The position numbers and the translations under genes were made by a program. DNA of 44,176 nucleotides from Candidatus Iainarchaeum sp. (GTDB lineage Archaea > Iainarchaeota > Iainarchaeia > Iainarchaeales > JAZDFD01): contig JAZDFD010000006.1 in assembly GCA_043808155.1 (NCBI GenBank), positions 1 through 44,176 on the forward strand. Reading direction: 5' to 3'. The notes under the pieces are model-generated. The model saw only the letters and a program-made list of their open reading frames with translations. It did not search any database and was not told the origin of the DNA. Within the stretch, counting starts at the first letter, position 1, and the number at the start of each line of letters is the position of its first letter. Shown in pieces: positions 22,181 to 39,232 of this stretch.

Positions 22181-22252
22181 ATGCGAAGTATGTGCGAACT
22201 CAAAGTGAGCTAGTGCTGCCGAAGGCGCACTCAAGCTCGAGGATTGAGCCTC
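22181..22252 (+). repeat. Structured tRNA-Arg 5' leader made of tRNA-associated hairpin modules
   Basis: GC-rich; contains GCGAACTCAAAGTGAGC and AGTGCTGCCGAAGGCGCAC, which recur near tRNA-Glu and tRNA-Thr. Lies between TATA-like TTTATAAG (22153) and the tRNA. Confidence 0.7.
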
Positions 22253-22324
22253 GCCCCCGTAGTATAATGGACAGAATGTTAGCTTGCGGAGCTTGAGATC
22301 TGGGTTCGATTCCCAGCGGGGGCG
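22253..22324 (+). tRNA. tRNA-Arg(GCG)
   Basis: Cloverleaf GCCCCCG/CGGGGGC, anticodon loop TT-GCG-GA, T loop GTTCGAT. Confidence 0.95.
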
Positions 22325-22332
22325 AATTTTAA

Positions 22333-22352
22333 TTCACCGGAAATTTACTCTT
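22333..22352 (+). promoter_or_regulatory. Conserved motif upstream of LAGLIDADG gene (copy 1)
   Basis: TTCACCGGAAATTTACTCTT, 58 nt before ATG; 18/20 identical to copy 3. Confidence 0.65.
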
Positions 22353-22390
22353 ACAAGTTCTTTAAAAATAAGAAAATTACAAATTTTATT

Positions 22391-23368
22391 ATGCTGGGAG
22401 AGTTTGACTTATTAGATTTGCATAATAGTGACGATATTGTACTTCGGAGATGTATTCGCGCATATACTATTATTCCAAAATATGTGAAAAATCCAACTGA
22501 AAAGAATTTCAAGGCGCAGAAAATTGTTAAGATTTTAAGACAAATAAATTCTAAGCTTAGAAAAGAAATTGGGCTGAGTTGGAAAGATCAATGGATTGAT
22601 AAATTACCTTTTGAAATGAAACGAACAAGTCCAAAAGAATGGTTTTTAGGAAGGGCTTCAATACCCTTAATTGCAATAACTAAACTAAATGAATTTGGTT
22701 GTGAAACAGAAGTTGAAGAAATCAAAAAACATCTAGATTATTTGTGTAGCACAACAGGTACTGTTGCAAAAAGTCCTAAAAAAGTTTCAAAAGAACTTGC
22801 TTGGTTTGTTGCAACAATACTTTGTGATGGGCATATGACAAAAAATGAAAGTAGACTTAGTTTTAGCTTAAGCGATAAACAATTAATTAAAAAAATTGGC
22901 GGGGTTTTTAACAAACTTTTTGAACTTGAAGGTCGGACTGTCAAAATCAAAGATAAACCGCAGTGTGTAAAACCACAATATGGATTGGATGGTAACAACA
23001 AAATTATTATTCGTTTTCTAAATAAATTTTGTGAGATTCCCGTGGGTAAAAAATGCGATATTATACTTGTGCCCGAAATAATTAAACAAGCACCACCAGA
23101 AATCAAAAGAGCATTTTTAAAAGGAGTTTTTGATACCGACGGAGGAAAACGGAGTGGTGGTCTAGGTTTAACAAGTGCATCAAAAAAATTCAGGGATCAA
23201 AACCTTGAGCTTCTTAAAGAATTCGGTATTAAATCTTACAAAGACGAATGGATCAATAAGCTATATAATAAAAAGTATTATGGTCTCAAATTTAAAATAG
23301 ACTCAAATTCAGAATTTTTATGCAGGCGTCGGATAGTGGCAATTCCGTCAGGTTTAGGGGAGTATTAA
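22391..23368 (+). CDS. Free-standing two-motif LAGLIDADG homing endonuclease-family protein
   Basis: LAWFVATILCDG and AFLKGVFDTDGG motifs; 3' end reads into tRNA-Leu. Confidence 0.85.
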   Translation: MLGEFDLLDLHNSDDIVLRRCIRAYTIIPKYVKNPTEKNFKAQKIVKILRQINSKLRKEIGLSWKDQWIDKLPFEMKRTSPKEWFLGRASIPLIAITKLNEFGCETEVEEIKKHLDYLCSTTGTVAKSPKKVSKELAWFVATILCDGHMTKNESRLSFSLSDKQLIKKIGGVFNKLFELEGRTVKIKDKPQCVKPQYGLDGNNKIIIRFLNKFCEIPVGKKCDIILVPEIIKQAPPEIKRAFLKGVFDTDGGKRSGGLGLTSASKKFRDQNLELLKEFGIKSYKDEWINKLYNKKYYGLKFKIDSNSEFLCRRRIVAIPSGLGEY

Positions 23369-23440
23369 GTCGTTTTTGATTTTTATTCTGAAACACCTGA
23401 TCCCTTAGTGGGTTCGCAGGTTCGAGTCCTGCCGCCTGCA
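23322..23440 (+). tRNA. tRNA-Leu(TAG) with 36-nt canonical 37/38 intron (23359..23394)
   Basis: GCAGGCG/CGCCTGC acceptor stem, long variable arm. BHB: TTTA/TGAA helix, bulges GG|G and AC|A. Confidence 0.92.
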
Positions 23441-23448
23441 TTATTAAG

Positions 23449-23527
23449 ATGCGAGCGAAGCGAGCTATTACGACTGAAAGTCGTACACGCACTCGCCGGA
23501 CGTGACGGCGGAATCCTGCCTCCTGCA
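23449..23527 (+). repeat. tRNA-linked hairpin element followed by a duplicate of the tRNA-Leu 3' end
   Basis: GCGAGCGAAGCGAGC...GCACTCGCCGGACGTGACGGCG, then GAATCCTGCCTCCTGCA (tRNA has GAGTCCTGCCGCCTGCA). Confidence 0.75.
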
Positions 23528-23601
23528 AAAAAACCAAAAAATTATAAAAATAAAAGTAGCCCATTAATCATCTGACTAAAAGAACATATTTCCAATAACT
23601 T

Positions 23602-24288
23602 TCATTGTATTGGTTTTACGGGTATTTGGCTGTAACCGCCACCCGTGTTCTGAATATTCTGCAGGCAGTTTTGTTTCTGGCTTTCATTTGTTATCTTGTC
23701 ACAATATGAAGAGTCTCCGAGTCTCATTGCCATGTTAAAATAGCAACTGTCCTTCATGCTGATGCTCTTTATTTCGTTGCAGAGTTCCGGATCTAAAAGC
23801 TCGCTTGCTAAATTACTATAGCAGTTTTCTCTGTAGTTAATTTCACTTATTTTGTCGCAAATTAAGGCATCCTTCTTGTCCCTTGCATACTGTTCATAGC
23901 ACCTGTCTGCATCTGTTCCTGCTTCCGAGCATATATCCGCGTCATTCTTCAATTCAGCCACTAGTACATAGCAGTTTGTTCGCTGGTCTCTACTCACTTC
24001 TTTGCAAATGGAAGCATTTTCGTATTTGCCTGCAATCCCCATTATGCAGGAATCCTCAAATGGAAACGCCTGAGTTGAGGGCATTCCGGAACAAACTTCC
24101 AGGTCTTTTTCCTCCTGTGTTAGCTCTTTTGTTGTCGCAGTAGTTGCAGGGCACAATGTTGGATCTGTTACTGTTGTTGTACCATCCGCACACACATACT
24201 TGATTGCAGAATCAGAAGTGGTTTGTGTGCAGCCAGCTAGAAGAAGAGTTAACCCCAATGCCAACATTAAATAGGATATATTCACCAA
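23602..24288 (-). CDS. Secreted lipoprotein-like protein with Cys-rich repeats (C-x-x-I...CY)
   Basis: LLAGC lipobox-like signal; about 5 tandem disulfide repeats. Confidence 0.85.
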   Translation of the reverse strand: MVNISYLMLALGLTLLLAGCTQTTSDSAIKYVCADGTTTVTDPTLCPATTATTKELTQEEKDLEVCSGMPSTQAFPFEDSCIMGIAGKYENASICKEVSRDQRTNCYVLVAELKNDADICSEAGTDADRCYEQYARDKKDALICDKISEINYRENCYSNLASELLDPELCNEIKSISMKDSCYFNMAMRLGDSSYCDKITNESQKQNCLQNIQNTGGGYSQIPVKPIQ

Positions 24289-24474
24289 ATCACTGTTTAG
24301 TAATATCTTTTAAGAGCTTAAAAACATATGGTTTCTAAATTTTTGTGAAATTTGCTTAAGAGCGCCATCACACAAACCTACGTCTCATATTCACCATCCT
24401 GCCTCTTGCATTACGTTTATATTGGAAAGCTACTTATATACTTCAAATAAATTCAATTTAGGGAGGGTTAGAAA

Positions 24475-24630
24475 ATGCCTGTAAAAAAACCGTTTGGTGG
24501 ATATGAAGTTTCATTCAAAGGATGCACTGACACTATGGAAAGTGTATTTGGATCAAAAGGAATTCCACCAAGTGAAATGACAAAAAAGCTCTGGGCTTAT
24601 GTTAAAAGTAAAAAAATAGCAGGGAAGTAA
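24475..24630 (+). CDS. 51-aa SWIB/MDM2-like mini-protein (not in ORF track)
   Basis: MPVKKPFGG...IPPSEMTKKLWAYVKSKKIAGK; GGAGGG SD; KKLWAY(V/I)K is SWIB-like. Confidence 0.7.
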   Translation: MPVKKPFGGYEVSFKGCTDTMESVFGSKGIPPSEMTKKLWAYVKSKKIAGK

Positions 24631-24645
24631 TTCCCTGACTTATTT

Positions 24646-25011
24646 TTATTGCAAATTGCAATTAGATGCAGATGCAAGAGATTGCAGTTGTTGCGTTCCT
24701 CTGTATTCTAAACCATTTATTTTCCAAGTAGGATAACCAGTTACACCTTCACTATTGCAAACTGATTTTTGCTGATCACAGTCAACGTAATTTACAAATT
24801 GGAATGAAGTTCCAAACATGTCTTTTTGATTTTTGCAGTTGTGACACCATTCAGTTCCATACATCACCACCCCATTTGCAGTTAAACATTGTGCGAATTC
24901 ATTCAGATCGCCAGGTGTTGCTGACCAGTTAATGTAACTTATTACAACAAAAGCAACTATTGCAATTCCGGTTATTCCTAAAACTGCATAAAGAGCTTTT
25001 TTCTTATCCAT
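24646..25011 (-). CDS. Membrane-anchored thioredoxin-fold protein
   Basis: MYGTEWCHNC (CxxC), GYPTW cis-Pro motif, N-terminal TM helix. Confidence 0.88.
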   Translation of the reverse strand: MDKKKALYAVLGITGIAIVAFVVISYINWSATPGDLNEFAQCLTANGVVMYGTEWCHNCKNQKDMFGTSFQFVNYVDCDQQKSVCNSEGVTGYPTWKINGLEYRGTQQLQSLASASNCNLQ

Positions 25012-25015
25012 TGTA

Positions 25016-25306
25016 TTACCTCAAACTCCAATTGTTTTGAATTAGTTCTGAAAGTTTAGGCATTATAATTATCAAAGCCCAAATTGCAGTTATTGAAAAT
25101 GTGATTACAAATCCTAAAAGTAAATCATTTGCCAGATTTTCACTAATTAAGAATAATTCATTATTCCAAAAATGATCAACTATTCCAAAAAGAGAACCAC
25201 CTAAAAACATAAGAGACAACCAGTGGAGATTTTGATTTTCCGGTTGCTTTTTTTTCAAACTATGTGCAAATAAAAATACTACTGCGGGAACGATATAACA
25301 GGTCAT
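25016..25306 (-). CDS. Small membrane protein
   Basis: 3 hydrophobic segments, GIVDHFWN motif, GGAGG SD. Confidence 0.8.
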   Translation of the reverse strand: MTCYIVPAVVFLFAHSLKKKQPENQNLHWLSLMFLGGSLFGIVDHFWNNELFLISENLANDLLLGFVITFSITAIWALIIIMPKLSELIQNNWSLR

Positions 25307-25344
25307 ATTAAAGCCTCCTAAATGATGTATTATTTAAATGAAAT

Positions 25345-25977
25345 TTATTTAAGAATCTTTCCGGTTTCCATATACCACAAATATAAGTCAAGTTCTGCCT
25401 GTGTCAGGTTTGATTTTTGTGCGATTTTTGCAAGTGTTTTTTCAATTTCGATATATACTTTTGGAGTTAATGTTTTTGATTTTTGAATTATTTTGTATTT
25501 CACTAACAAATCAATAATATGGAAATCAACTATTGCCAGATTTTCATAACCTATGTTTCTGAGGAAGTGACTTGCTTCTTTAAAACCCAGACCTTTTATG
25601 TTCTTTACAACCCATTCACGAAGTTCGAATTCATTCTGGGAGGAGAACATAATTTTTCTCAGTGAGCTTTTATGTTTTCTTGCTTCTGCTATGTGTTCTG
25701 CTCGTTTGTTGGGAAATCTATGGCCTAATGATTTGAGTTTTTTTACCAGCTGTGGTTTTGTAAGAGTTATGAAACCATCTTTGATTTCAGTCTGAATTTT
25801 TATTGCAGGTTCTGCACTGTAATTTGCAGTTAAAATACAAAAACAGAGCTCTTTGAAAAGCTCATTGTTTGATTTTGTACCCAGTTTTTTGAATTCTTTG
25901 ATTTTTGAATCTACTTGGGATTTTATTTTTGTTCTTTTAAGTTTTTGTAAATCTCTGGTAAGGTTATTGTAAGTCAT
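25345..25977 (-). CDS. ogg: 8-oxoguanine DNA glycosylase/AP lyase (Ogg2 type)
   Basis: ELCFCILTAN, HhH KGLGFKEASHFLRNIG, AIVDFHI. Confidence 0.92.
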   Translation of the reverse strand: MTYNNLTRDLQKLKRTKIKSQVDSKIKEFKKLGTKSNNELFKELCFCILTANYSAEPAIKIQTEIKDGFITLTKPQLVKKLKSLGHRFPNKRAEHIAEARKHKSSLRKIMFSSQNEFELREWVVKNIKGLGFKEASHFLRNIGYENLAIVDFHIIDLLVKYKIIQKSKTLTPKVYIEIEKTLAKIAQKSNLTQAELDLYLWYMETGKILK

Positions 25978-25998
25978 TTGAATCCTTGTATTCGGTAT

Positions 25999-26379
25999 TC
26001 ACAATTTTGCTGTCCACAAACCATGCAAATTGCAATATGCTCTTACAGTTAAGTTATCTGCAATTTTACAGAACATTGTTTCGGGTGGCATTCCAGGTTT
26101 TAGGTGTTTTCGGATTGATTTTCCATCTGCAACTAATTCAACCCATTCAATGTAATGTTCCTGTGTCATGGGGTGTGGTTCAGACCCTATTTTCACTTTT
26201 ATTTTTCCATTAACTTCTTCAATTACAGGAACATGCTTTTCCTTACTTGCGTCTACGCTGTTTTCTTTTTGCAGTTGCATTGGCTGTCCGCAACAAACTA
26301 ATTGGCCTGCACCTGCGTGAAGCATCTCAACAATGTTTCCGCAGACATTACATTTGTAAATTTCATTCAATTTCGTCAT
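25999..26379 (-). CDS. dfx: Desulfoferrodoxin / superoxide reductase
   Basis: YKCNVCGN, VCCGQPM, EKHVP, HPM...HYIEW, YCNLHGLW. Confidence 0.95.
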   Translation of the reverse strand: MTKLNEIYKCNVCGNIVEMLHAGAGQLVCCGQPMQLQKENSVDASKEKHVPVIEEVNGKIKVKIGSEPHPMTQEHYIEWVELVADGKSIRKHLKPGMPPETMFCKIADNLTVRAYCNLHGLWTAKL

Positions 26380-26386
26380 TTTATCA

Positions 26387-26908
26387 CTACTTTAATCTAT
26401 CGCCTGAAAGGTTTAAGTGATCAGTTTCTATCTGAACAATTGCTGCAAATAATGTTTTCACTCTTTTATTTTCTGATTCTTGTGCTGCTTTTTTGTAAAA
26501 ATTAATTGCACGCTCTTCTCTTGTGTGAGATTCTTTCAAGTTGTCAGTATTTGCAATTGCACATTTTAATGATTTTTCAGTTTGTTCTTTTGGTAATTTG
26601 AGAATTTTTCTCCATATTATTGCATGTTCTGTTTCAACTTTTGCTAAAGCTTTGAACAACTGTTTGCCTTCTGCATCGTCTGTTTTTTCTGCAGCACACA
26701 AATAAAAAGCTGTGTTGTCAATTTCTAAACCTAATGCAGTTTCTACATTTTTTTTATCGGTTTCATTTAGTTTTACATCAAAAGTTTCATTGTAATCTTT
26801 TGCTTCCACTATGAATTTTTCATAGGCACCACAAAACGGACATCGGCTTGGTGCATGTTCCCCAATATAAGGATCTCCGCAAATTCTGCATCTAAATAAT
26901 TTAATCAT
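26387..26908 (-). CDS. Rubrerythrin-like protein (N-terminal rubredoxin + ferritin-like domain)
   Basis: CRICG...CPFCG; ExxH diiron motifs (ETEH, ETDH). Confidence 0.88.
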   Translation of the reverse strand: MIKLFRCRICGDPYIGEHAPSRCPFCGAYEKFIVEAKDYNETFDVKLNETDKKNVETALGLEIDNTAFYLCAAEKTDDAEGKQLFKALAKVETEHAIIWRKILKLPKEQTEKSLKCAIANTDNLKESHTREERAINFYKKAAQESENKRVKTLFAAIVQIETDHLNLSGDRLK

Positions 26909-26916
26909 ACAATCAC

Positions 26917-26988
26917 CTATTTTTCCTTTTTAACTGGTTTTTTAACTGGTTTCTTTTCAGCTCCGCAACAACAACAATCTCCGCCCAT
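26917..26988 (-). CDS. 23-aa Cys-rich leader/mini peptide MGGDCCCCGAEKKPVKKPVKKEK (not in ORF track)
   Basis: AAGGAGGG SD; stop overlaps the GGTGA SD of the rubrerythrin gene. Confidence 0.6.
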   Translation of the reverse strand: MGGDCCCCGAEKKPVKKPVKKEK

Positions 26989-27055
26989 AATTAATCCCTC
27001 CTTAGGCAGAATAAAATACAAAATAGATTAAATAGTTATGCTGCTCTTCTGCACA

Positions 27056-27445
27056 TTATCGTCTTCGCATTAAAGGTAATTTTCTTTTTTGTGCATCCTT
27101 TAATGCAATTGCGGCTCTTGTTATTCTGCCTTTTAACCCGCCAGTTGTATGTATTTCTTGCATTTCACGAGCATTGAGATTATGCAATGCTGTTTGAAAA
27201 GCAGGATCGATAACATTCTGAGCTCTCAAAAAATCGATTGCGCTAGTTAAGGCAACATTCTGTTCTGGAAACTCCCATTGTTTTGCGCCTTTTTTAATTT
27301 TTTCAGCCATTTCGGGATCGTTAAGATGTTGAAATAAGTCTGCTTTCAAATCTCGTCCCATTTGCTGGCTTAGTTTCCTTAAATCTACCCCCTGTACTTT
27401 CAATTTTTCAACCAGTGCTTCAAAATCTTTCTTAGCTAATACCAT
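27056..27445 (-). CDS. Small orphan protein with basic C-terminus
   Basis: GTGA SD-like site; ends PLMRRR. Confidence 0.7.
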   Translation of the reverse strand: MVLAKKDFEALVEKLKVQGVDLRKLSQQMGRDLKADLFQHLNDPEMAEKIKKGAKQWEFPEQNVALTSAIDFLRAQNVIDPAFQTALHNLNAREMQEIHTTGGLKGRITRAAIALKDAQKRKLPLMRRR

Positions 27446-27545
27446 ACAATCACTAATTAAATTAAGAATCCAAACTATTTAATCATTGCTCTTTGACAGC
27501 AAAGTAAGAGATAAGTATTTAAATACTACATGGGAAAAGTAAGTT

Positions 27546-27656
27546 ATGAGATTTGAAGATAGTGATTTAGTTCATCTGCTTCGATTCAAATCAGATGATG
27601 AAGAAGAAGATGATAATGAAGAGGAAGAAGAATTCGACGAAGAATTCTGCTCTTAA
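27546..27656 (+). CDS. 36-aa acidic peptide (putative)
   Basis: MRFEDSDLVHLLRFKSDDEEEDDNEEEEEFDEEFCS, downstream of TATA-like TTTAAATA. Confidence 0.45.
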   Translation: MRFEDSDLVHLLRFKSDDEEEDDNEEEEEFDEEFCS

Positions 27657-27733
27657 AGTCCTCGGTTCAATTAGCGGAAGCTTCAAATACCTTTCTTATT
27701 CTAATTTTTTCAAGTCTAAAAGTTTTAATGACT

Positions 27734-27856
27734 GGCTGCAGTGGTCTAATGGTATGATTCAGGACTGTGGAAACCTTTTCTTTTCGAAGAAAAGCTTTAC
27801 CAAAAGAAAACAGTTGCAGGTATCCTGTGAAGCGGGTCCGATTCCCGCCTGTGGCC
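27734..27856 (+). tRNA. tRNA-His(GTG) with encoded G-1 and 51-nt 37/38 intron (27771..27821)
   Basis: GCTGCAG/CTGTGGC acceptor stem, C73. BHB: CTGT/GCAG helix, bulges GG|A and GT|A. Confidence 0.92.
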
Positions 27857-27882
27857 CTGCCCGATTCCGATTGGGCGTACCG

Positions 27883-27925
27883 GAATATGTGCAGGATTTC
27901 GTTACACTCAATCCTGCGATAATAT
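27883..27925. repeat. Hairpin repeat (GCAGGATT...AATCCTGC); inverted copy of a segment of the tRNA-Tyr intron
   Basis: 37/43 nt identical to the reverse complement of 43652..43694. Confidence 0.8.
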
Positions 27926-28011
27926 CTGATTCTGAAAGTGAGTTAGTTCATCTCTGATTTGTTTTTTAGGGAAAACATAAATAGTAAAACTGCATTAATA
28001 ATGGTGAAACC

Positions 28012-29295
28012 ATGGAACTAATAAATGCAAAAGGAACAAAGGATCTGATGCCGGAAGAGAAAATTGTAGTGGAAACTCTGAAAAGTAAATTAGTTGAGAT
28101 TTTTGAGAGATATGGTTTCAATCCTTTGGAAACTCCGCTTATTGAGAAATTGGATGTTCTTTCTTCCAAATACGCAGGCGGGGATGAAATTCTTAAGGAA
28201 ATTTTTGTACTTACAGATCAGGGAAACAGAAAACTTGGTTTGAGATATGATTTGACTGTTCCATTGTCACGCGTTGTCGGCATGAATCCTAATTTGAAGA
28301 TGCCTTTTAAGAGATATCAGTTAGGGAAAGTTTTCAGAGACGGGCCGATTAAAGCAGGAAGATATCGTGAGTTTATTCAGTGTGATGTTGATACTGTTGG
28401 AAGTTCTTCAATGCTTGCGGATGCAGAATTTGTTGCAATTGTACGTGATTTTTTCAGGGAGCTCAATGTTGAAGTTGTGACAAAAGTGAATACTAGAAAA
28501 TTACTGAATGGGATTATTGAGGAAGTTAAAGTTCCGGATTCTAAAAAAATGAAAGTAATACTTGCAATTGATAAGCTTGAGAAGCAGGGAATTAATGTTG
28601 TGAGAAAAGAACTTGAAGATTTGGGAATTTCTGATGACAGAGTTTGCAAAATTGAAGAAATGATTTCAATTAAAGGAAATAATTCAGAAAAACTTGAGAT
28701 GATTAAGAAATTTGTGAAAAATAAAGAGGGACTTGAGGGAATTAAAGAACTTGAAGAGATTGCTAATTATCTGAAATTAATGAAAGTTGATAATTATGAA
28801 TTTGATTTTTCACTTGCGCGTGGTTTAGCGTATTATACAGGAACTGTGTTTGAAGTGTTCGCAAAAAAAAGCAAAGTTTCGGGTGCTCTTGCCGCAGGTG
28901 GAAGATATGACAGAATGATTGCTGAATTTTTAGGCAGAAAAGAAGATGTGCCTGCTGTCGGAATTAGTTTTGGTGTAAGTGCAATAATGGATGCTGTAGA
29001 ATTTGCAGAGAATAAGAAATGTGTTACTCAGATTTATGTGATTCCTATTGGAACTTTGAATGAAAGTGTGAAAATTGTAAATGAATTACGCGGAAAAGGT
29101 CTGAAAGTAGATGTTGATTTGATGTCACGCGGTGTGAGTAAAAATTTGAATTATGCTAATTCTTACAAGATTCCTTTTGTTGCAATTATCGGGGAAAAGG
29201 AACTTAAGCAGAAGAGAATCAATTTGAGAGATATGAAAACAGGGAAGGAACAATTAGTTTCTGTGAAAGACGTTGCTGATTTTCTGAAAAAATAA
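28012..29295 (+). CDS. hisS: Histidine--tRNA ligase
   Basis: KGTKD, LRYDLTVP, GRYREFIQCD, ARGLAYYTG, GGRYD, anticodon-binding domain. Confidence 0.98.
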   Translation: MELINAKGTKDLMPEEKIVVETLKSKLVEIFERYGFNPLETPLIEKLDVLSSKYAGGDEILKEIFVLTDQGNRKLGLRYDLTVPLSRVVGMNPNLKMPFKRYQLGKVFRDGPIKAGRYREFIQCDVDTVGSSSMLADAEFVAIVRDFFRELNVEVVTKVNTRKLLNGIIEEVKVPDSKKMKVILAIDKLEKQGINVVRKELEDLGISDDRVCKIEEMISIKGNNSEKLEMIKKFVKNKEGLEGIKELEEIANYLKLMKVDNYEFDFSLARGLAYYTGTVFEVFAKKSKVSGALAAGGRYDRMIAEFLGRKEDVPAVGISFGVSAIMDAVEFAENKKCVTQIYVIPIGTLNESVKIVNELRGKGLKVDVDLMSRGVSKNLNYANSYKIPFVAIIGEKELKQKRINLRDMKTGKEQLVSVKDVADFLKK

Positions 29296-30315
29296 TTATC
29301 TTATATCCGAGTTTTGTTTTGTTACCTTAGTTGCATAAGGGTCTAGCTGATTAATACGTGCATTTGGCCCTCCGCGATAATATCCTGAAAGCAGATTATT
29401 GAAGTTTGTGCTTGAACCTTTGCGTCTTATTTCAAGTTCGTGGCTTATTATTTCATCATGCGCAATTGAAAGCATCATGTTTAATTTCAAATCGTTTTTC
29501 AGGAGAGTTCTTAAGTTTGCAGTTGAGATTGAGTCGGAAATTTTTGCAATGATTTCATCTCTGAAAGGAAAATTTTTATCTGCAAGTGCTTGTCGTCTAA
29601 TCATCTTTGTAGATGACGGCATTATTTGTGTTATGCCTAATGCACCAGTCTTTGAAACTGCCTGCCAGTTTCCGTTGCTTTCTGTCAGAATTCTTTTTAC
29701 AAACATTTCAAAATATTCAGCTAATTTTTCCGGGGTGAATCCCCGTATCTGTGAGTATTGTCTGCATAATTCAAATGCAGTTGGCAGAACAATTAACATT
29801 GTTTGTGCTCTTGCTGCGTAATTTTCAGAACCATGTCCGTTTTTGTAAGCACTGATTCTTTGCTCTAAATTTGTTTTTAACTGTGAAAAATATTTAGTCT
29901 GTGTTGCGTAATTATTGAAATTATTAATAAGTCGTTCTGAAACTATGCACTGGGGAGTCGGAAGATGATTTATATCATTGGGAAGTTCAACATATTTAAC
30001 AGGCCTTGCAACAAGGAATTTTTCAGGAACATTCATGTCAACATCTTTCATTCTGTTAATAAAGTCCTGAGTTGCTTGTTGTGAAATTTCAGATTTCTGC
30101 ACAGGAAGTGATCTTACTCTTTCAATTCCTTTTGAAATTCCAAATCCTGCTGCAGCTGCTCCAAGCATGGCAACTGCTTTTCCTCGCCCAGTCAATGTCA
30201 ATCTTTTTTTTTGGGAGATGGGTTTTCTTGTGGGTGAAAGAATCTCACTGGCAGGTGGTAATTTTCTCCCAGTACGAAGTTTCGGTTTTGGGTAGTGGGA
30301 ATGTGGATTTGGCAT
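29296..30315 (-). CDS. Transglycosylase SLT-domain protein with membrane anchor
   Basis: TESNG...AVSKTGALGITQIMP...YYRGG SLT motifs. Start probably MPNPH (ORF track starts at 30330). Confidence 0.75.
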   Translation of the reverse strand: MPNPHSHYPKPKLRTGRKLPPASEILSPTRKPISQKKRLTLTGRGKAVAMLGAAAAGFGISKGIERVRSLPVQKSEISQQATQDFINRMKDVDMNVPEKFLVARPVKYVELPNDINHLPTPQCIVSERLINNFNNYATQTKYFSQLKTNLEQRISAYKNGHGSENYAARAQTMLIVLPTAFELCRQYSQIRGFTPEKLAEYFEMFVKRILTESNGNWQAVSKTGALGITQIMPSSTKMIRRQALADKNFPFRDEIIAKISDSISTANLRTLLKNDLKLNMMLSIAHDEIISHELEIRRKGSSTNFNNLLSGYYRGGPNARINQLDPYATKVTKQNSDIR

Positions 30316-30360
30316 AACATAATTATACACTGCATATTTAATAATTTCCCGCTCTCGAAG

Positions 30361-30379
30361 TTCAGAGGAAATGAACTCT
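30361..30379 (+). promoter_or_regulatory. Conserved motif upstream of LAGLIDADG remnant (copy 2)
   Basis: TTCAGAGGAAATGAACTCT, 56 nt before ATG. Confidence 0.6.
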
Positions 30380-30416
30380 AAGAGCGTTTATAAATGCTGA
30401 AAAACAATTTTTTATT

Positions 30417-30734
30417 ATGCTGAGGGTTGGTGATAAAAAAGGTGCAAGGATAAATCCCCTTGCAACTATTCCGTCAAAAATGTCTGCTGATTTAGCTGAA
30501 GAAAGTGAAAAATTAATACTGCAAATAGACAAAATACTAAAACAAAATAACTTCACCACTTCGGCGGTACTGAATTCCAAAAACAAAGCAAGTAATGGAG
30601 TTGAATGCATAAACAGCAGAGTATATCTTTATGGAGTCAATAATCTCAAAAGATGGTCAAATTTAATTGGTTTTTCAAATCCAAAAAACATATGCAAATT
30701 CAACATTTGGCAAGAAAAAGGATATTTAAAATAG
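30417..30734 (+). pseudogene. Internally deleted LAGLIDADG paralog of 33445..34173
   Basis: MSADLAEE joins directly to SEKLILQI...ASNG...IGFSNPKN...EKGYLK. The paralog has ~130 extra aa here, carrying both catalytic motifs. Confidence 0.8.
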
Positions 30735-30806
30735 CCCCATCCGGGATTCGAACACGGGACCTCGACATTACCAATGTCGCGCTCTAACCAGCTGAGCTAA
30801 TGGGGC
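30733..30806 (-). tRNA. tRNA-Thr(GGT)
   Basis: GCCCCAT/ATGGGGC, anticodon arm CGACA-TTGGTAA-TGTCG, U73; one T-stem mismatch. Confidence 0.93.
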
Positions 30807-30859
30807 AATAATACCTAACAATAGGTAAAAACATTTAAATTGATTCACTCAATTAAACA

Positions 30860-30882
30860 GGTTCAATTCCCGCCAGAGGCTT
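30860..30882 (+). repeat. Orphan tRNA 3'-end fragment (att-like), partly repeated at 31771..31784
   Basis: GGTTCAATTCCCGCCAGAGGCTT vs CCTGCCAGAGGCTT. Confidence 0.55.
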
Positions 30883-30932
30883 GAGATTCTTTCCGAAACT
30901 ATAAAATATGAGTTTGGACTTAGTTATGATTT

Positions 30933-31316
30933 ATGAAAATGTATTTAATTTTTGGATTAATTTTAGCAGTTTTAATTTTTAGTGGTTGTGCAAATAATAA
31001 TGGTGTAGGCCCATCCCCTTCATTCACAATATCAATAAGTAATGCTTCGGAATATTCGGATTATGAGTTTTATTATGTAGGTAATATTTGGGAAGATCAA
31101 TTAACGTTGATAGCTGATGATACGGAGGTTTACAAATTAAATACTCATGTTACAGTTTATGCTGTTCCTAAAGAACTGAACATTAATAAAAATACTTTTG
31201 CGGAAATTAGTTCAAAAAGTGTTAAATCCCAACAAATATCATTAGACTCAGGAAATAATGATTTTGAAGTTAGTTCTTTTGATACTGCAAATGGAACTAT
31301 GTTGTTAAGTAAATGA
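30933..31316 (+). CDS. Secreted lipoprotein-like hypothetical protein
   Basis: IFSGC lipobox-like signal. Confidence 0.8.
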   Translation: MKMYLIFGLILAVLIFSGCANNNGVGPSPSFTISISNASEYSDYEFYYVGNIWEDQLTLIADDTEVYKLNTHVTVYAVPKELNINKNTFAEISSKSVKSQQISLDSGNNDFEVSSFDTANGTMLLSK

Positions 31317-31353
31317 AGAATAAATAAATATGAGTTTGGACTTGGTTTGTAGT

Positions 31354-31656
31354 ATGAACAAAATAATAAAATTAATAATTATTATTGGAATTATCATTGT
31401 ACTGTTTATATCCATATTTGTAATTAGCACAGTTATTTTTGCGATTAGTTCCGTTGCAGATACTGACGAAATTGCAATTATGTTAACTGAAGCTAAATGT
31501 AATTGGAGACTTTCTGATATTCCAGCTGAAACATGCTCTGCAATTTTTACAGGCGTCTATTTCAATGGTGAAAAATGTGTAAGTGATATCACAGGTGCAT
31601 GCAAAAATTATGCTCCTTTTGGAACTTTAGAAGAATGTCAACAAAAATGTGAATAA
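31354..31656 (+). CDS. Membrane-anchored protein with Kunitz/BPTI-like domain
   Basis: N-terminal TM helix; six Cys with the pattern C...CSAIF..YF....C....GAC....F.TLEECQQKC. Start MNKII preferred over 31330. Confidence 0.7.
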   Translation: MNKIIKLIIIIGIIIVLFISIFVISTVIFAISSVADTDEIAIMLTEAKCNWRLSDIPAETCSAIFTGVYFNGEKCVSDITGACKNYAPFGTLEECQQKCE

Positions 31657-31844
31657 TTCACAAACTACGAATATTTCAAACAAACGAACATCACAAACTT
31701 TAAAAGAAGTTTCAGGGCAAATTATAATAGTACGAAAAACAGCTCAATACATTGAACAAGACTGATTCAGCCTGCCAGAGGCTTTCTTTTTCTGTTTACG
31801 AAGAAAGCATTAAAAAATCCAGAATTGTAATAATAGTGGTTTAT

Positions 31845-32522
31845 ATGAAACTGAATGATGAACTTGTGGATGCTATTGTCGATAAATACATCAAAGACGG
31901 AGATGTGATTTCTTTTGGAACTTCGAAGGCGAGTGAACAGCTGATTAAGAGAATTGCAATAAAAATCGAAGAAAAAAATGAAAAAGTGTATGTGGTTCCT
32001 TCATCTTTGAGAATGGCTTCAATTGCTTCTGATTTGGGGCTTGAAATTGTCACGCTTGATGAAAAAGAAGTTGATGTTGCAATTGAATTTGCAGAGTATG
32101 CAGACGAGCAGTTTAATTTTGTTAAGATGGATGCGAGTTCGTTAATTAAAGATAAAATGATTGGGCAGAGTGCTGCAGAACTGATTGTTATTTGTGACCA
32201 TGATAAATTTGAAAAGCGTTTGAAAGTGATTCCTTTTGAAGTTGCTTCATTCGGATGGAAAAGAACCGAGATTCAGCTGGGTGCATTAGGAAACGCAAAA
32301 TTAAGGAAACATGACGGAAAAGTTTTCAAAACTGAAACGGGAAATTATTTCATTGATGTGGAATTGGATGATGTTTATTCATTAGAAGATATTGATTATG
32401 CGACAAAAGAAATCCCCGGCGTAATTGAAACAGGACTTTTTATTGGTTATGCTGACAGATTCTTATTACACAACGGAAAAGAGATTACTGTTAAAAGCAG
32501 GCTTGATTATTCAAAACAATAG
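31845..32522 (+). CDS. Ribose-5-phosphate isomerase A-like protein, catalytic motifs degenerate
   Basis: RpiA fold motifs (VPSS, PFEV, T.TGNY, IPGVIETGLF), but SFGTSKA and EFAEY replace GLGTGST and DGADE. Confidence 0.8.
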   Translation: MKLNDELVDAIVDKYIKDGDVISFGTSKASEQLIKRIAIKIEEKNEKVYVVPSSLRMASIASDLGLEIVTLDEKEVDVAIEFAEYADEQFNFVKMDASSLIKDKMIGQSAAELIVICDHDKFEKRLKVIPFEVASFGWKRTEIQLGALGNAKLRKHDGKVFKTETGNYFIDVELDDVYSLEDIDYATKEIPGVIETGLFIGYADRFLLHNGKEITVKSRLDYSKQ

Positions 32523-32535
32523 GGGTTTGGAGAGT

Positions 32536-33177
32536 ATGCAGGACTTACAGAAAGAGAATTGCGCAAAGAAGGCAATGGAATTAGTTAAGGACGGAATGGT
32601 TATTGGGTTAGGGAGCGGAAGTACGTTAGTTTATTTCACACGCTTTCTTGGACACTCAAACTTAAATGTAAAAGTGGTTGTTAGTTCCAAGCAAATTCTA
32701 AAAGTTGCAGAAGAAGTTGGTTTAGAAATTGTTGATTTTGAAAGTGTAGATAAAATTGATTTAGCAGTTGATGGTGCAGATCAGGTTGACAAGGAATTTA
32801 ATTTGTTGAAAGGTCTTGGTGCATTTGCAGTTGTGGGGGAAAAGAAATTAGATTATTTTGCAGAAAAATGCGTTATTGTTGTTGATGAAAGTAAAATTTC
32901 TAATGTTCTTGATAGGAATGTTATTTTAGAAATTAATCCTCACAAACTTGAGAGTGTTAAAAAAGCGCTCATGAATTTTGATTGTAAAATTGTGAAAGAA
33001 ACCATGCATGAGGGAAATTCAGTTGTTTTTTTGGATTTTGGAGTTATTAAAAATTCAGCTGAATTAGAGCAAAGAATTGATGCAATTGATGGTGTTAATG
33101 GCAATGGAATCTTTGCTAATTTTAAGCAGCCAATTGATGTGATTGTAGGCAAAAATCAGGGTGCGGAATTCCTCTGA
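32536..33177 (+). CDS. rpiA: Ribose-5-phosphate isomerase A
   Basis: GLGSGST, DLAVDGADQVD, KGLGA...EK. Confidence 0.85.
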   Translation: MQDLQKENCAKKAMELVKDGMVIGLGSGSTLVYFTRFLGHSNLNVKVVVSSKQILKVAEEVGLEIVDFESVDKIDLAVDGADQVDKEFNLLKGLGAFAVVGEKKLDYFAEKCVIVVDESKISNVLDRNVILEINPHKLESVKKALMNFDCKIVKETMHEGNSVVFLDFGVIKNSAELEQRIDAIDGVNGNGIFANFKQPIDVIVGKNQGAEFL

Positions 33178-33326
33178 CAAAGTGCAAAGTTTCTCTGAAA
33201 TTCTTTTTTAATAGTTTGCCAGGCAAATTAGTAATGTCTGTCGCGGTAGCTCAGCCAGATTATTTTTAAGTTACCTTTTTTAAGACTTTCCAGAAACAAG
33301 TTTTAGTGCTTTAATACTGAGCATTT

Positions 33327-33440
33327 GCCAGAGTAGCTCAGCCGGTTAGAGCACTAGACTGGTTTTTTGGTCTATTAATCAAAAAATACAGGGTGAAACT
33401 CATAATCTAGGTGTCAGGGGTTCAAATCCCCTCTCTGGCA
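33327..33440 (+). tRNA. tRNA-Met(CAT), probably elongator, with 40-nt non-canonical 30/31 intron (33358..33397)
   Basis: GCCAGAG/CTCTGGC. BHB: GAG-CACT-AG|A-CTG / CAG-GGTG-AA|A-CTC; splicing gives CTAGA-CTCATAA-TCTAG. Confidence 0.9.
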
Positions 33441-33444
33441 TTAT

Positions 33445-34173
33445 CTATTTAACATAGCCTTTCTCGAGCCATGCTTCTAGTTTCTTCAAATTTTTAGGAT
33501 TAGAGAAACCAATCGAATCAACCCATCTTCCAAGGTTTTTCTTCCCAGAAATATAAACTCTGTTTATAAAACACATTGTCCCATTGCTAGCCACACCAGG
33601 CTTATCATATTGAACACATGTTGTAAATCCCATATTCAATAAAATTTCATTTACTTGTTCTATTAATCTTCTACTCTTACTTGCTATATCGATCCTTGGA
33701 TAATATTTTATTTTTTTGTATTTTTTCTGAAACTGCAAACAACCATCAGTATCAATCAATCCCCGTAAAAAATCACTAACAAAATCCGACTTTAATACAC
33801 AATCAGGAATTTGTATTTTATTTTTCGACCCAATAGGAAACCCTAACGCTTTTTTGAACTGAAGTAATACTTTCGAACTGTAAACAAGTTGAAGACAGTC
33901 CTTTTTCTCATAAATTTTCGTATCTAAGTTATAGACTTTTTTCATCAATTTTTTTAGATGTTTGACATAATCTAACTCGTCTTTTCCAGATGAAATAGTA
34001 TAGTTTATAATATTTCTATGAGGCAATCTATACAAATACAGTCCTCCGTCTCCAACATGAATTCCAAACTCCTCTGCTAATTCAGCACTCATTTCTCTTG
34101 GAAATTTAATTCCTTTTTTCCTATCAACTGAAGAAAAACTAATTCTTGAAATATCAACCAACTCTTTATCCAT
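33445..34173 (-). CDS. Free-standing two-motif LAGLIDADG homing endonuclease-family protein
   Basis: LAEEFGIHVGDG and FLRGLIDTDG; stop codon 4 nt from the tRNA-Met 3' end. Confidence 0.9.
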   Translation of the reverse strand: MDKELVDISRISFSSVDRKKGIKFPREMSAELAEEFGIHVGDGGLYLYRLPHRNIINYTISSGKDELDYVKHLKKLMKKVYNLDTKIYEKKDCLQLVYSSKVLLQFKKALGFPIGSKNKIQIPDCVLKSDFVSDFLRGLIDTDGCLQFQKKYKKIKYYPRIDIASKSRRLIEQVNEILLNMGFTTCVQYDKPGVASNGTMCFINRVYISGKKNLGRWVDSIGFSNPKNLKKLEAWLEKGYVK

Positions 34174-34210
34174 ATAATAATTTGAGTTTTGTGCTTTAAA
34201 AACGCTTTCA

Positions 34211-34230
34211 AAGAGTGGATTTCCGGTGAA
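34211..34230 (-). promoter_or_regulatory. Conserved motif upstream of LAGLIDADG gene (copy 3)
   Basis: TTCACCGGAAATCCACTCTT on the - strand, 57 nt before ATG. Confidence 0.65.
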
Positions 34231-34266
34231 CTTACATTTTTTAATAATTTAGCTTTTGATTATTAA

Positions 34267-34303
34267 TGCCGATGACGATCCGGCTGAGCGATGAGTGTTT
34301 GAT
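34267..34303 (+). ncRNA. Possible box C/D-like small RNA
   Basis: GATGA-8nt-CTGA-GC-GATGA arrangement ~25 nt downstream of an AT-rich TATA-like stretch; guides are short and the D box is imperfect. Confidence 0.3.
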
Positions 34304-34363
34304 TTATCAAATATAGTGATTATAAGTAATGAGTTCTGAGGCAAATTATTTCAAAGTGATGTT

Positions 34364-35200
34364 ATGGGTCAGCAATTGAAAACTGTGTTTTTTCTCGGGT
34401 TAATGACTGGGATTTTCTTACTTACAGGATACGTAATTGGCGGAGAATTTGGAATAATAATTGCTTTTGTTTTAGCGCTTTTTATGAATTTAATTAGTTA
34501 TTGGTTTTCAGATAAAATTGTTCTGAAAATGTATCGTGCAAAGGAAATTTCAAGAAATGAAAATCCTGAACTTCATTCAATGATTGAAATGCTCGCACAG
34601 CAATTTGAAGTTCCTAAACCTAAAGTTTATTTGGTTGAAAACCCATCACCAAACGCATTTGCAACTGGTAGAAATCCGGCAAATGCTGCAATTGCAGTTA
34701 CAACCGGACTTTTGAAATTATTAAATACAGAAGAATTACGCGGAGTTCTTGCCCATGAATTTGCACACATTAAAAACAGAGATATTTTGATTAGCACAGT
34801 TGCAGCAGTAATTGCAGGTGCAATTGGAATGCTTGCTTTTTTTGCAAGGATTGCAATGTGGGGCGGAAGTTCACGTGACAGAGGAAATATTGTTAGTTTG
34901 ATTTTAGTTGCAATTATGATTCCGATAATTGCAGTGATTGTGAGATTGGCAATTTCACGTTCTAGAGAATATTTAGCAGATGAAACAGCAGCAAAAACAA
35001 TTCATTCTCACATTGGTTTAGCAAATGCATTGCAGAAATTACAGTATGGGACTAAAAAAATTCCAATGCACAATGCAAATGAAGGCACTGCTCATATGTT
35101 CATTGCAAACCCTTTCGGAAAAACTGGATTTATGGAATTATTTTCAACTCATCCACCCATGGAAAAACGAATTGAAAGACTGAGAAATGTTTCAATGTAA
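34364..35200 (+). CDS. htpX: Zinc metalloprotease HtpX
   Basis: PNAFATGRNP, HEFAH, ISRSREYLAD, FSTHPP. Confidence 0.97.
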   Translation: MGQQLKTVFFLGLMTGIFLLTGYVIGGEFGIIIAFVLALFMNLISYWFSDKIVLKMYRAKEISRNENPELHSMIEMLAQQFEVPKPKVYLVENPSPNAFATGRNPANAAIAVTTGLLKLLNTEELRGVLAHEFAHIKNRDILISTVAAVIAGAIGMLAFFARIAMWGGSSRDRGNIVSLILVAIMIPIIAVIVRLAISRSREYLADETAAKTIHSHIGLANALQKLQYGTKKIPMHNANEGTAHMFIANPFGKTGFMELFSTHPPMEKRIERLRNVSM

Positions 35201-35230
35201 GTAATAAAAAGCTTCTTCTGCACTTTTCAT

Positions 35231-35293
35231 ATGCGAGCGAGGACAAACCCATAGCGCAAAGCGTATGGGTTCAACTCAAGGTTGTGGCCTTGT
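35231..35293 (+). repeat. Structured tRNA-Glu 5' leader
   Basis: Begins ATGCGA like the Arg leader; CCCATA/TATGGG and CAAGG/CCTTG hairpins; ACTCAAG shared with the Arg leader. Confidence 0.6.
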
Positions 35294-35366
35294 GCCCCTG
35301 TAGTGTAATGGTTAAGCATTCTGGCTTCTCAAGCCAGCGATTTGGGTTCGAATCCCGGCGGGGGCA
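35294..35366 (+). tRNA. tRNA-Glu(CTC)
   Basis: GCCCCTG/CGGGGGC, anticodon arm CTGGC-TTCTCAA-GCCAG. Confidence 0.95.
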
Positions 35367-35377
35367 TGATTAATACA

Positions 35378-35546
35378 TTGCTATTGAGCGAACAAAGTGA
35401 GCATGTGGCACTTCAGTGCCACTCGTACTAGCCGGACGTGTCGGCTTTCGAATCCCGGCAGGGGCATAAAATACAGTGCTACCGAAGGTGCACAGATCAT
35501 AGCCGAGTCTTTTCGTTTTAGTGCTATTGAGCGAAGCGAAAAGTAC
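35378..35546 (+). repeat. tRNA-linked hairpin modules including a duplicated tRNA-Glu 3' end (35447..35466)
   Basis: TGCTATTGAGCGAA x2, GCCGGACGTGTCGGC, TTCGAATCCCGGCAGGGGCA, AGTGCTACCGAAGGTGCAC. Confidence 0.8.
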
Positions 35547-35616
35547 CAGTGTAACTAACACAATAAGACCTAAGCTTTTCAAAACAATTAAATATGAGAA
35601 AGGGGTTAAGTTCTAA

Positions 35617-36048
35617 ATGATGAACAAAAGAATGCTGGTTGCAGGAGTTCTTTCAATTATTAATCTATTTTTATTATATGTTTCTATATTTGTAATTGGG
35701 TTATATATTTTACCAGGGCAGTTTCTTACTTTTTTTCCTTTAATTGTGGGGGGAATTGTTTATTACTGGGCTAATAAAAAAAGAAAATATGATACATTGA
35801 AATCATTTATTTACTTTAATATAGCATTCTTTTTGTCTTTTATAATTCCATTTGGGGCGCTTGTGTTAATCTATGTTCTTACTGCCCCAATAATTAGGCC
35901 CATGTATGGGGTTGAGCCAATGTACGGAGTTCCAATGCCTGCTCCAGAGTATGGTGTTGGGGCAATTACAGGTACAGTTTTGTTTGGATTTAAAGCTAGA
36001 ATTTATTTAATAATGGATTCAATTAAGAAACTTTTTAGAAAGATTTAA
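35617..36048 (+). CDS. Membrane protein with three PxYGV motifs; candidate radical SAM substrate
   Basis: RPMYGVEPMYGVPMPAPEYGV following TM helices; directly upstream of the rSAM gene. Confidence 0.75.
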   Translation: MMNKRMLVAGVLSIINLFLLYVSIFVIGLYILPGQFLTFFPLIVGGIVYYWANKKRKYDTLKSFIYFNIAFFLSFIIPFGALVLIYVLTAPIIRPMYGVEPMYGVPMPAPEYGVGAITGTVLFGFKARIYLIMDSIKKLFRKI

Positions 36049-36073
36049 TAGACTTTTATATTCAATTGTTTTT

Positions 36074-37123: not shown

Positions 37124-37236
37124 AAACTAAATTATTTTTTGACTACCAACAAGGGCATAATACCGATAAGCATTGTGGGGGGGTGCTAGTATGCAAGGTA
37201 TTGATTTTTAAAGTTGTAGAAGCTGATTCTAAGTAT

Positions 37237-39172: not shown

Positions 39173-39232
39173 GTATAAGCCTGGATAATTGCTTAGGAGA
39201 TACGTTTTAAAGTATTAATGAATGTAATTTTA

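Follow-up and report, generated by a model that had tools for sequence, protein, structure and literature searches.

The nearest functional parallel to the genes described here is SegB of bacteriophage T4, a free-standing endonuclease gene in a cluster of tRNA genes. The site it recognizes takes in the T-psi-C stem-loop, a conserved element of tRNAs, and its homing carries its own gene and neighboring tRNA genes into relatives without SegB (PMC2330249). We analyzed a window of 44,176 nucleotides (nt), contig C6 of genome G000, which belongs to the groundwater archaeon Candidatus Iainarchaeum sp. (1.08 Mb, 35% G+C, 35 contigs, 88% complete). An earlier note on this window had described three free-standing LAGLIDADG genes, each ending at a tRNA gene and each preceded at a fixed distance by the 19-nt motif TTCA-NN-GGAAAT-NN-ACTCT, and had read the motif as the left end or operator of mobile cassettes or, alternatively, as the mark of a co-regulated family. 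We find that the link to tRNA genes is real and family-wide. The motif itself appears to be no cassette end; its distribution points to a regulatory site of a recombination and replication regulon that is used also by selfish nucleases.

Like SegB, the genes in question are free-standing endonuclease genes at tRNA genes. SegB, however, is a phage enzyme of the GIY-YIG type acting in co-infections, whereas here the proteins are two-motif LAGLIDADG proteins of cellular DPANN genomes, their cleavage is predicted, the open reading frame (ORF) has its 3′ end on the tRNA gene, each lineage keeps to a single tRNA species, and a split tRNA gene surrounds some of the cassettes. With the archaeal LAGLIDADG endonucleases encoded in introns and inteins (intein domains, rRNA-intron enzymes) they have the fold family and both catalytic motifs in common, but they come without intein splicing blocks, host protein, or group I intron recognized by Rfam, and the ORFs of the window stand outside mature tRNAs. 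A LAGLIDADG scaffold can also be domesticated, and the hallmarks of a WhiA-like regulator are the loss of catalytic residues and the addition of a helix-turn-helix (HTH) domain. The likeness to WhiA extends to the scaffold and to an HTH in some G000 paralogues (HTH_7 at the N terminus of the contig C1 protein, HTH_3 in the C30 protein), whereas here the catalytic Asp residues are kept and copy number is patchy. In full-text searches, we found no paper that describes free-standing LAGLIDADG genes next to tRNA genes of archaea; the one that joins LAGLIDADG, Woesearchaeota, and tRNA concerns group I introns in rRNA genes.

For the promoter motif, the described systems to compare are the Orc1-2/DDRE DNA-damage regulon of Saccharolobus islandicus, where damage and repair genes have a promoter element in common and an Orc1 paralogue with a winged helix acts as regulator (PMC9738581), and Sta1 of S. 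solfataricus, a winged-helix factor on DNA-damage and repair promoters (PMC2175319). A promoter element common to archaeal repair genes unites them with the present case. Here, however, the element is a 19-nt motif in DPANN archaea with selfish nuclease genes in the regulon, whereas the element of S. islandicus is the hexamer ANTTTC (PMC9738581).

Three LAGLIDADG genes and their tRNA neighbors

ARAGORN and Rfam place eight tRNA genes in the window, four of them with introns. The three genes, their promoter elements, and the neighboring tRNA genes are the following (PWM, position weight matrix; aa, amino acids).

22252..22325, plus strand: intact tRNA-Arg(GCG), left neighbor of cassette 1, its 3′ end 8 nt before motif copy 1 (ARAGORN; Rfam, 54.5 bits)
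22333..22351, plus strand: motif copy 1 (TTCACCGGAAATTTACTCT), upstream promoter element (PWM score 30.4)
22361..22369, plus strand: TATA-like box TTTAAAAAT, with the ATG of gene 1 about 22 nt further on (sequence read, spacing)
22391..23368, plus strand: LAGLIDADG gene 1, 325 aa, with an N-terminal extension of about 125 aa and both LAGLIDADG motifs kept (Pfam PF14528, E = 4.9e-14; alignments)
23321..23441, plus strand: tRNA-Leu(TAG) with an intron, the sole Leu(TAG) gene found in G000 (ARAGORN with introns allowed; alignment)
30361..30379, plus strand: motif copy 2 (TTCAGAGGAAATGAACTCT) (PWM score 26.8)
30387..30395, plus strand: TATA-like box TTTATAAAT (sequence read)
30417..30734, plus strand: remnant ORF (gene 2), 105 aa, a gene-3-like LAGLIDADG copy with an internal deletion (no Pfam match; BLASTP against protein 3)
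30733..30806, minus strand: tRNA-Thr(GGT), convergent with the remnant ORF (ARAGORN, Rfam)
33326..33441, plus strand: tRNA-Met(CAT) with a 40- to 44-nt intron, convergent with gene 3 (Rfam, 60.3 bits; ARAGORN)
33445..34173, minus strand: LAGLIDADG gene 3, 242 aa, both LAGLIDADG motifs intact (Pfam PF14528, E = 2.9e-13; alignment)
34194..34202, minus strand: TATA-like box (TTTTTAAAG on the minus strand) (sequence read, context)
34212..34230, minus strand: motif copy 3 (TTCACCGGAAATCCACTCT) (PWM score 34.3)

Each of the three ORFs ends on a tRNA gene, as the earlier note had it. Gene 1 overlaps tRNA-Leu(TAG) by 48 nt on the same strand, so that its last 16 codons lie within the tRNA; the 3′ ends of the remnant ORF and tRNA-Thr(GGT) overlap by 2 nt; and a gap of 3–4 nt separates gene 3 from tRNA-Met(CAT). 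The call of tRNA-Leu(TAG) depends on settings (default ARAGORN gives a tRNA-Lys at 23348–23440, and Rfam gave none), and the sequence aligns well with the other tRNA-Leu genes of G000. The fixed spacing of the motif is likewise as claimed, with 58, 56, and 57 nt from motif start to ATG, and a TATA-like box lies just 3′ of each copy (gap 6–10 nt; box start 26–28 nt after motif start). Searched for as TTCA-SM-GGAAAT-NN-ACTCT with at most two mismatches, the motif has exactly three matches in the window against 0.06 expected, and none of 100 shuffles reached three.

The transcript of gene 1 is probably leaderless or nearly so. From motif to fifth codon, this gene (C6 22333–22410) is nearly identical to a LAGLIDADG gene of contig C1 (92940–92863), with about 5 differences in 78 nt, despite only 36% identity between the two proteins over 45 aa. 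The start-codon box GCTNAGAGAGT occurs four times in G000, three times at motif-bearing genes, one of which (a PIN gene) has it in a different reading frame.

That all three are LAGLIDADG genes stands for genes 1 and 3, whose proteins score 52.8 and 50.3 bits with LAGLIDADG_3 (PF14528; curated cut-off 22.5 bits), and fails for protein 2, which has no Pfam match: its residues 25–105 align with residues 162–242 of protein 3 (BLASTP, 48% identity), and both LAGLIDADG motifs are absent. Proteins 1 and 3 are only 24% identical over 133 aa. In an alignment of six paralogues that includes both, the two acidic LAGLIDADG motifs contain the invariant residues D42, G43, D141, T142, D143, and G144. Because both catalytic Asp positions are kept, domestication of the WhiA type, which the earlier note had considered, is not supported; nor did Pfam match an HTH domain in proteins 1 and 3. 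Among proteins of solved structure, the endonucleases of inteins and introns come closest (V-ATPase intein chains 7qsu/7qss, E ~1e-12; putative homing endonuclease 2dch), and the NCBIfam matches are to intein-containing models only. Pfam found no intein splicing domain in the LAGLIDADG proteins of the window, and no group I intron or other Rfam family was found to span their ORFs. None of the three ORFs sits within an rRNA or tRNA intron: they lie outside the adjacent tRNAs, which have short introns of their own, and are free-standing, with their own promoters and outside any intron or intein.

The motif across G000 and its relatives

We scanned G000 with a weight matrix of the motif (cut-off 14 bits; control, the reversed sequence) and obtained 21 sites against 1 in the control. 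A pattern search gave 22 sites, 10 of them exact and 12 with one or two mismatches. Nearly all sites face a gene; the ATG lies 55–58 nt from motif start in 13 of the 22 pattern sites, and at most sites a TATA box starts 25–29 nt after motif start. The genes so preceded include seven of the nine free-standing LAGLIDADG genes, as well as a degenerate LAGLIDADG-like ORF of 348 aa. They also include genes of recombination, repair, and replication: RadA, NurA (the first gene before HerA, split over two contig ends), Hef (helicase plus ERCC4 nuclease), a Hel308-type helicase that holds an intein, an SSB-like OB-fold protein, and PriL, the large subunit of primase. The remaining genes encode a DUF2779/Cas4-like nuclease, TnpB, PIN, Fic, and DUF7718 proteins, a conserved 507-aa protein that belongs to no family, and two small ORFs.

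A count of the exact pattern over 41 same-order genomes gave 10 matches for G000 and 19 for G035, a member of another family. Two more genomes yielded a single match each, the remaining 37 yielded none, and the reversed control stayed at 0 throughout. With the same promoter geometry, the G035 sites precede RadA, NurA, HerA, and MCM, three LAGLIDADG genes, five to six TnpB genes, a gene for an 87-aa protein, and the orthologue of the 507-aa protein; RadA, NurA, and the family-less 507/486-aa protein are the orthologues that bear the motif in both genomes. We also compared by eye the DNA upstream of radA in 30 genomes. About 22 of the 30 relatives have a related element there (CA-NN-GG-A/C-AA and some 9 nt more, immediately 5′ of TATA) and 8 do not, and it occurs as well in genomes without a free-standing LAGLIDADG match. 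The motif has a fixed position and orientation relative to the B recognition element (BRE) and TATA box and is kept before orthologous genes in other genomes. A site upstream of BRE/TATA is the usual binding place of archaeal activators.

Alternatively, the motif might belong to the LAGLIDADG cassettes themselves, as their conserved left end, their homing site, or an operator of their own. It does precede most free-standing LAGLIDADG genes of G000 and is the left-most element of the cassette, beginning 8 nt past tRNA-Arg in the window and abutting a 5′ piece of tRNA in contig C1; moreover, 19 nt is a typical length for a LAGLIDADG target site. The same motif, with the same TATA and ATG spacing, nevertheless stands before the G000 genes for RadA, NurA, Hef, Hel308, SSB-like, PriL, TnpB, PIN, and Fic and before RadA, NurA, HerA, and MCM in G035, the radA element extends to genomes without a match to such endonuclease genes, and about 73 of 80 homologous cassettes elsewhere lack the motif. 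We consider this reading very unlikely. The genome scan places the motif before many unrelated genes in both G000 and G035, so the claim that it is specific to LAGLIDADG cassettes falls; the other option of the earlier note, co-regulated genes, is upheld in that the LAGLIDADG genes have their promoter element in common with repair genes. The motif before repair genes in both genomes, together with the radA element in most of the relatives compared, argues for an old, drifting regulatory site of a regulon and not for a cassette terminus, and binding by a host factor is predicted, not binding by the LAGLIDADG protein.

Origin recognition boxes (ORBs), the Orc1/Cdc6 sites of replication origins, are a further possible identity for the motif, which would then be no promoter element. 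The core TTCA-NN-GGAAA resembles a mini-ORB oligonucleotide of S. solfataricus (which contains TTCAGATGAAAC) and the Orc1-3 C3 site (which contains GGAAATTTAC) (PMC3089459), as well as the 'TTCC' and 'GAA' cores of Pyrococcus mini-ORBs (PMC1904270). Yet the sites are single, are oriented with the downstream gene, and keep a fixed distance from TATA and ATG, and the few kb around each of the two orc1/cdc6 genes of G000 contain no motif-like cluster; we give this identity hardly any weight. By analogy with Orc1-2 of S. islandicus, an Orc1 paralogue is a possible regulator acting through the motif, but a second Orc1 paralogue is present in 23 of the 41 genomes irrespective of the exact motif. Another candidate regulator is a small winged-helix-like protein (90 aa, encoded at C12 83354–83626) whose gene has a motif site of its own. 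The second Orc1/Cdc6 gene of G000 (G000:C24:71739-72899, minus strand) reads as two overlapping frames of 221 and 178 aa, from a frameshift or an assembly error.

Three further observations concern the motif. TnpB genes (IS200/605 OrfB-type) have it with the spacing seen at RadA, at G000:C23:24575-25826 and at the G035 loci L042, L043, L044, L047, and L048. At the PIN gene G000:C1:40149-40716, the motif starts about 10 nt past the 3′ end of tRNA-Thr(CGT), the same tRNA-then-motif junction as at 22325/22333 of the window. At three unrelated promoters of G035 (L025, L027, and L039, before the 87-aa protein, RadA, and a 56-aa ORF), an identical purine-rich stretch of 30 nt precedes the motif, so that the conserved module is longer in G035.

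A LAGLIDADG family with tRNA genes at the 3′ ends of its ORFs

We searched species-representative genomes with a profile built from three paralogues and found at least 376 LAGLIDADG relatives among the 594 pattern matches examined. The best 80 loci of these relatives form a cross-phylum sample, labeled Woesearchaeota, Pacearchaeota, Nanoarchaeota, Aenigmarchaeota, Micrarchaeota, and Iainarchaeota (six DPANN phyla), with some bins labeled otherwise; the labels are coarse NCBI labels. An independent same-order sample takes the best free-standing LAGLIDADG match from each of 24 genomes. A tRNA gene counted as adjacent if it overlapped the 3′ end of the ORF or stood between −140 and +120 nt from that end. 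By this measure, 57 of the 80 cross-phylum loci have a tRNA gene at the ORF 3′ end (44 on the same strand, 13 convergent), as do 17 of the 24 same-order loci. About 1 in 80 would be expected by chance from tRNA density, and the remaining 14 tRNA genes in 344 kb match the genome-wide density. On the 5′ side, the nearest tRNA gene was found in only 2 of the 80 loci. In the same-strand cases, the ORF often stops 15–16 nt inside the tRNA. The same adjacency is seen at three G035 loci and in contigs C1 and C13 of G000.

In a maximum-likelihood tree of 87 proteins (quick search; four rows on long branches, including protein 1 and the contig C1 protein), clades follow tRNA identity: His(GTG) (n = 22), Arg(GCG) (n = 11), and Arg(TCG) (n = 10, including the C13 gene of G000). 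The family of free-standing, intron-less LAGLIDADG genes tied to tRNA genes that the earlier note had proposed is thus borne out by the two samples, by clades that track the tRNA, and by the split tRNA genes flanking some cassettes. Copy number is patchy, profile matches being present in 31 of the 41 same-order genomes at 0 to 12 per genome, inteins included. Scanning metagenomes with protein 1 gave 64 pattern matches and no relatives.

Archaeal integrative elements commonly target tRNA genes, and the adjacency could be a by-product of larger, integrase-inserted elements with the LAGLIDADG gene as cargo, in line with a promoter motif that TnpB, PIN, and Fic genes have in common. The cassette, however, is a single gene that fills the space between the tRNA gene and its neighbor (in the window, for example, 66 nt from tRNA-Arg to ATG). 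Self-BLAST of the 80 loci for direct repeats of the adjacent tRNA, as from target duplication, gave only five short matches at chance level, and no integrase was noticed in the ORF list beside the three window genes, the neighboring ORFs having had no Pfam scan. Insertion as part of a larger element seems to us highly improbable.

Domestication in a broader sense is a weightier reading: vertically inherited host proteins coupled to the adjacent tRNA, for example as a tRNA-gene-specific DNA- or RNA-binding factor or a co-transcribed maturase. It agrees with a family this widespread, with intact ORFs among the at least 376 relatives, with the same clade–tRNA pairing across several phylum labels, and with same-strand ORFs that run into the tRNA, for which co-transcription is likely. 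It agrees poorly with a copy number that ranges so widely within one order, with several paralogues beside different tRNA genes in one genome, and with the two orientations observed; further, the catalytic Asp of both motifs is kept, a decayed copy exists, and disrupted-tRNA pieces flank cassettes. We regard domestication as unlikely, and hold to a family of endonuclease genes planted on tRNA genes.

We also considered tRNA introns as a form of immunity. In G000, introns are present in all four tRNA genes beside intact LAGLIDADG genes but in only 14 of the 45 tRNA genes overall (hypergeometric P = 0.0067). The association is not general: across phyla, 19 of 57 adjacent tRNA genes have introns, about the background of G000, and the His and Arg(GCG) clades have none.

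Although tRNA-His is the commonest partner of the family in other genomes, the tRNA-His(GTG) of the window (27735–27857, with a 51- to 54-nt intron) has no LAGLIDADG partner, and the ORF overlying it (27595–27957) is probably spurious. A tRNA cluster, Thr(GGT)-Met-Glu(CTC)-Thr(TGT), is common to window positions 30733–39404 and L181 (G028:C9:397661-401290). In each of them, tRNA-Met and tRNA-Glu are separated by a LAGLIDADG gene, which in the window converges on tRNA-Met and in G028 shares the strand of tRNA-Glu and runs into it.

Split tRNA genes around cassettes

Pieces of tRNA genes flank some of the cassettes. The window has two candidate relics.

23505..23527, plus strand: degenerate T arm plus acceptor strand, the 3′ part of another tRNA-Leu-like gene (local alignment with tRNA-Leu(GAG))
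33240..33261, plus strand: 5′ piece (acceptor strand and part of the D arm) of a tRNA-Met-like gene (sequence read)

The tRNA-Leu-like piece lies 64 nt past the intact tRNA-Leu and matches the 3′ end of tRNA-Leu(GAG) in 22 of 23 aligned letters, with a 4-nt gap. The tRNA-Met-like piece lies 65 nt 5′ of the intact tRNA-Met and resembles the 5′ end of tRNA-Met of the relative G005 (L171); a partner acceptor strand for it was found nowhere in the window.

In contig C1 of G000, the order is a 33-nt 5′ tRNA piece abutting the motif, the LAGLIDADG ORF, an intact tRNA-Ala(GGC), a hairpin, and a T arm with an acceptor strand that pairs with the 5′ piece. The inner tRNA-Ala(GGC) bears an intron and is the sole tRNA-Ala(GGC) gene in G000. 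It differs in sequence type from the split outer tRNA, whose 5′ piece comes closest to the tRNA-Ala(GGC) of the relative G032 and whose anticodon arm and variable loop are missing. We considered a giant spliceable intron or split tRNA in this place and rejected it: the cofolded ends give an acceptor stem and a T arm without an anticodon arm, and the genome holds no full-length twin. We favor the reading of the outer tRNA as a disrupted gene.

Four loci of the Arg(GCG) clade (L092, L098, L104, and L118) have a comparable layout, with a 5′ piece, TATA box and ORF at once, an intact tRNA-Arg(GCG), and a pairing T-arm/acceptor piece 15–45 nt further on. The 5′ piece comprises the acceptor strand and D arm and is like the tRNA-Arg(GCG) of the window, and the inner, intact tRNA-Arg(GCG) is of a different sequence type. 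As in contig C1, the outer pieces are without an anticodon arm. In three of the four genomes, which are incomplete bins, the 5′-piece type is found nowhere else. Most loci of the His clade have a D-arm-like stretch directly before the TATA box. This nested layout suggests homing into tRNA genes with a substitute tRNA.

The sole relative that lies between tRNA halves keeping the anticodon stem is L087:1954-2807 (labeled Micrarchaeota). Its LAGLIDADG ORF stands between the halves of one tRNA, both anticodon-stem strands are kept, a 10-bp helix closes the insert of about 760 nt, and a motif-like element and TATA box lie about 95 nt upstream. This locus may be a giant tRNA intron with a homing endonuclease gene, a possible exception to the rule that the genes stand outside introns.

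Two other approaches were set aside. ARAGORN with introns of 300–1600 nt, as a count of split tRNA genes, mostly joined halves of different tRNAs and was left out. A joint of 22388 to 23536 as the empty site of cassette 1 is not credible (a 21-nt side, one contig, likeness threshold 80).

Other features of the window

Just past the gene 3 promoter, positions 34267–34343 (plus strand) give weak Rfam matches to C/D-box small RNAs (snoR122 and sR41, below the gathering score) and contain C- and D-box-like words. A tRNA-Tyr(GTA) with a 106-nt intron lies at 43557–43752. Two very long ORFs on the plus strand, 2–5809 (at least 1935 aa) and 5846–13051 (2401 aa), fill the first 13 kb.

A joint explanation

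The best joint explanation, in our judgment a probable one, is that the motif is a putative transcription factor site of a repair regulon and that the LAGLIDADG genes are homing endonuclease genes planted on tRNA genes across DPANN archaea, homing being deduced from the patterns above. The putative site would immediately precede BRE/TATA in the promoters of a regulon that serves DNA recombination, repair, and replication in this DPANN order and has RadA, NurA-HerA, Hef, Hel308, SSB-like, and PriL as predicted members, joined by MCM in the relative. The mRNAs are probably leaderless, the ATG following the TATA box by about 28–30 nt, and the distance from motif to ATG would be fixed for this reason. 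The LAGLIDADG family would have its 3′ end planted on a tRNA gene, with each lineage tied to one tRNA species. The enzyme is predicted to cut the conserved tRNA gene of a genome without the cassette, and repair would copy in promoter and ORF; at several loci, an intact tRNA with the anticodon of the split gene would come along and take over its role. Like the TnpB genes, the cassettes appear to bear the repair-regulon element of the host, so that the nuclease would be made along with the recombination machinery that heals its cut. Gene 2 would have decayed, the state to be expected of a homing endonuclease gene late in its life cycle; the patchy copy number, this decayed copy, and the relics fit such a cycle.

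Several observations weigh against this explanation. No tRNA gene was found at the ORF end in 23 of the 80 and 7 of the 24 loci, one 10-member clade has no tRNA called at all, and the pairing of clades with tRNAs across phyla could stem from old vertical inheritance. A loose rule for paired relics matched 9 of 107 loci against 6 in the control, and a full D arm is present in only five of the nine (L087, L092, L098, L104, and L118); with the rule barely above its control, the case for split tRNA genes rests on these five loci and contig C1. No empty-site allele was found, the sequencing-run contigs searched being short fragments, and the argument for mobility is drawn from patchy copy number, tRNA relics, and one decayed copy. 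As for the motif, one exact copy (C4 2727–2745) lies 155 nt before a TBP gene without a TATA box at the usual spacing, the MCM gene of G000 has no motif site on its own strand, and the motif is present in only about 7 of the 80 homologous LAGLIDADG loci elsewhere.

A more specific version, which we offer tentatively and consider doubtful as it stands, takes the cassettes as 'cleave and replace' selfish elements. The LAGLIDADG enzyme would cut the resident tRNA gene in the anticodon arm; the cassette would bring the nuclease and a divergent, presumably uncuttable tRNA of the same anticodon; the old gene would be left as flanking halves; and the RadA-regulon promoter would time cutting with recombination repair. 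Together with intron-borne relatives such as L087, these elements might then be a selective agent behind the fragmentation of archaeal tRNA genes into intron-bearing and split genes.

Implications

DPANN archaea cannot be grown alone, and their gene regulation is almost unknown. If the joint explanation is true, a recombination and replication regulon with a defined cis-element would be predicted for this group. Selfish nucleases of two kinds, LAGLIDADG and TnpB, would be plugged into the repair regulon of their host, a simple way to cut only when the cut can be healed. A large family of endonuclease genes would be living on tRNA genes; its enzymes would be new nucleases that recognize long sites and whose natural targets lie in conserved genes. 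One proposal holds that disruption of tRNA genes protects against mobile elements. The family would supply concrete nuclease–tRNA pairs with which to study why interrupted, split, and permuted tRNA genes are so common in archaea, and nucleases that hug tRNA genes in this way may help explain their frequent break-up.

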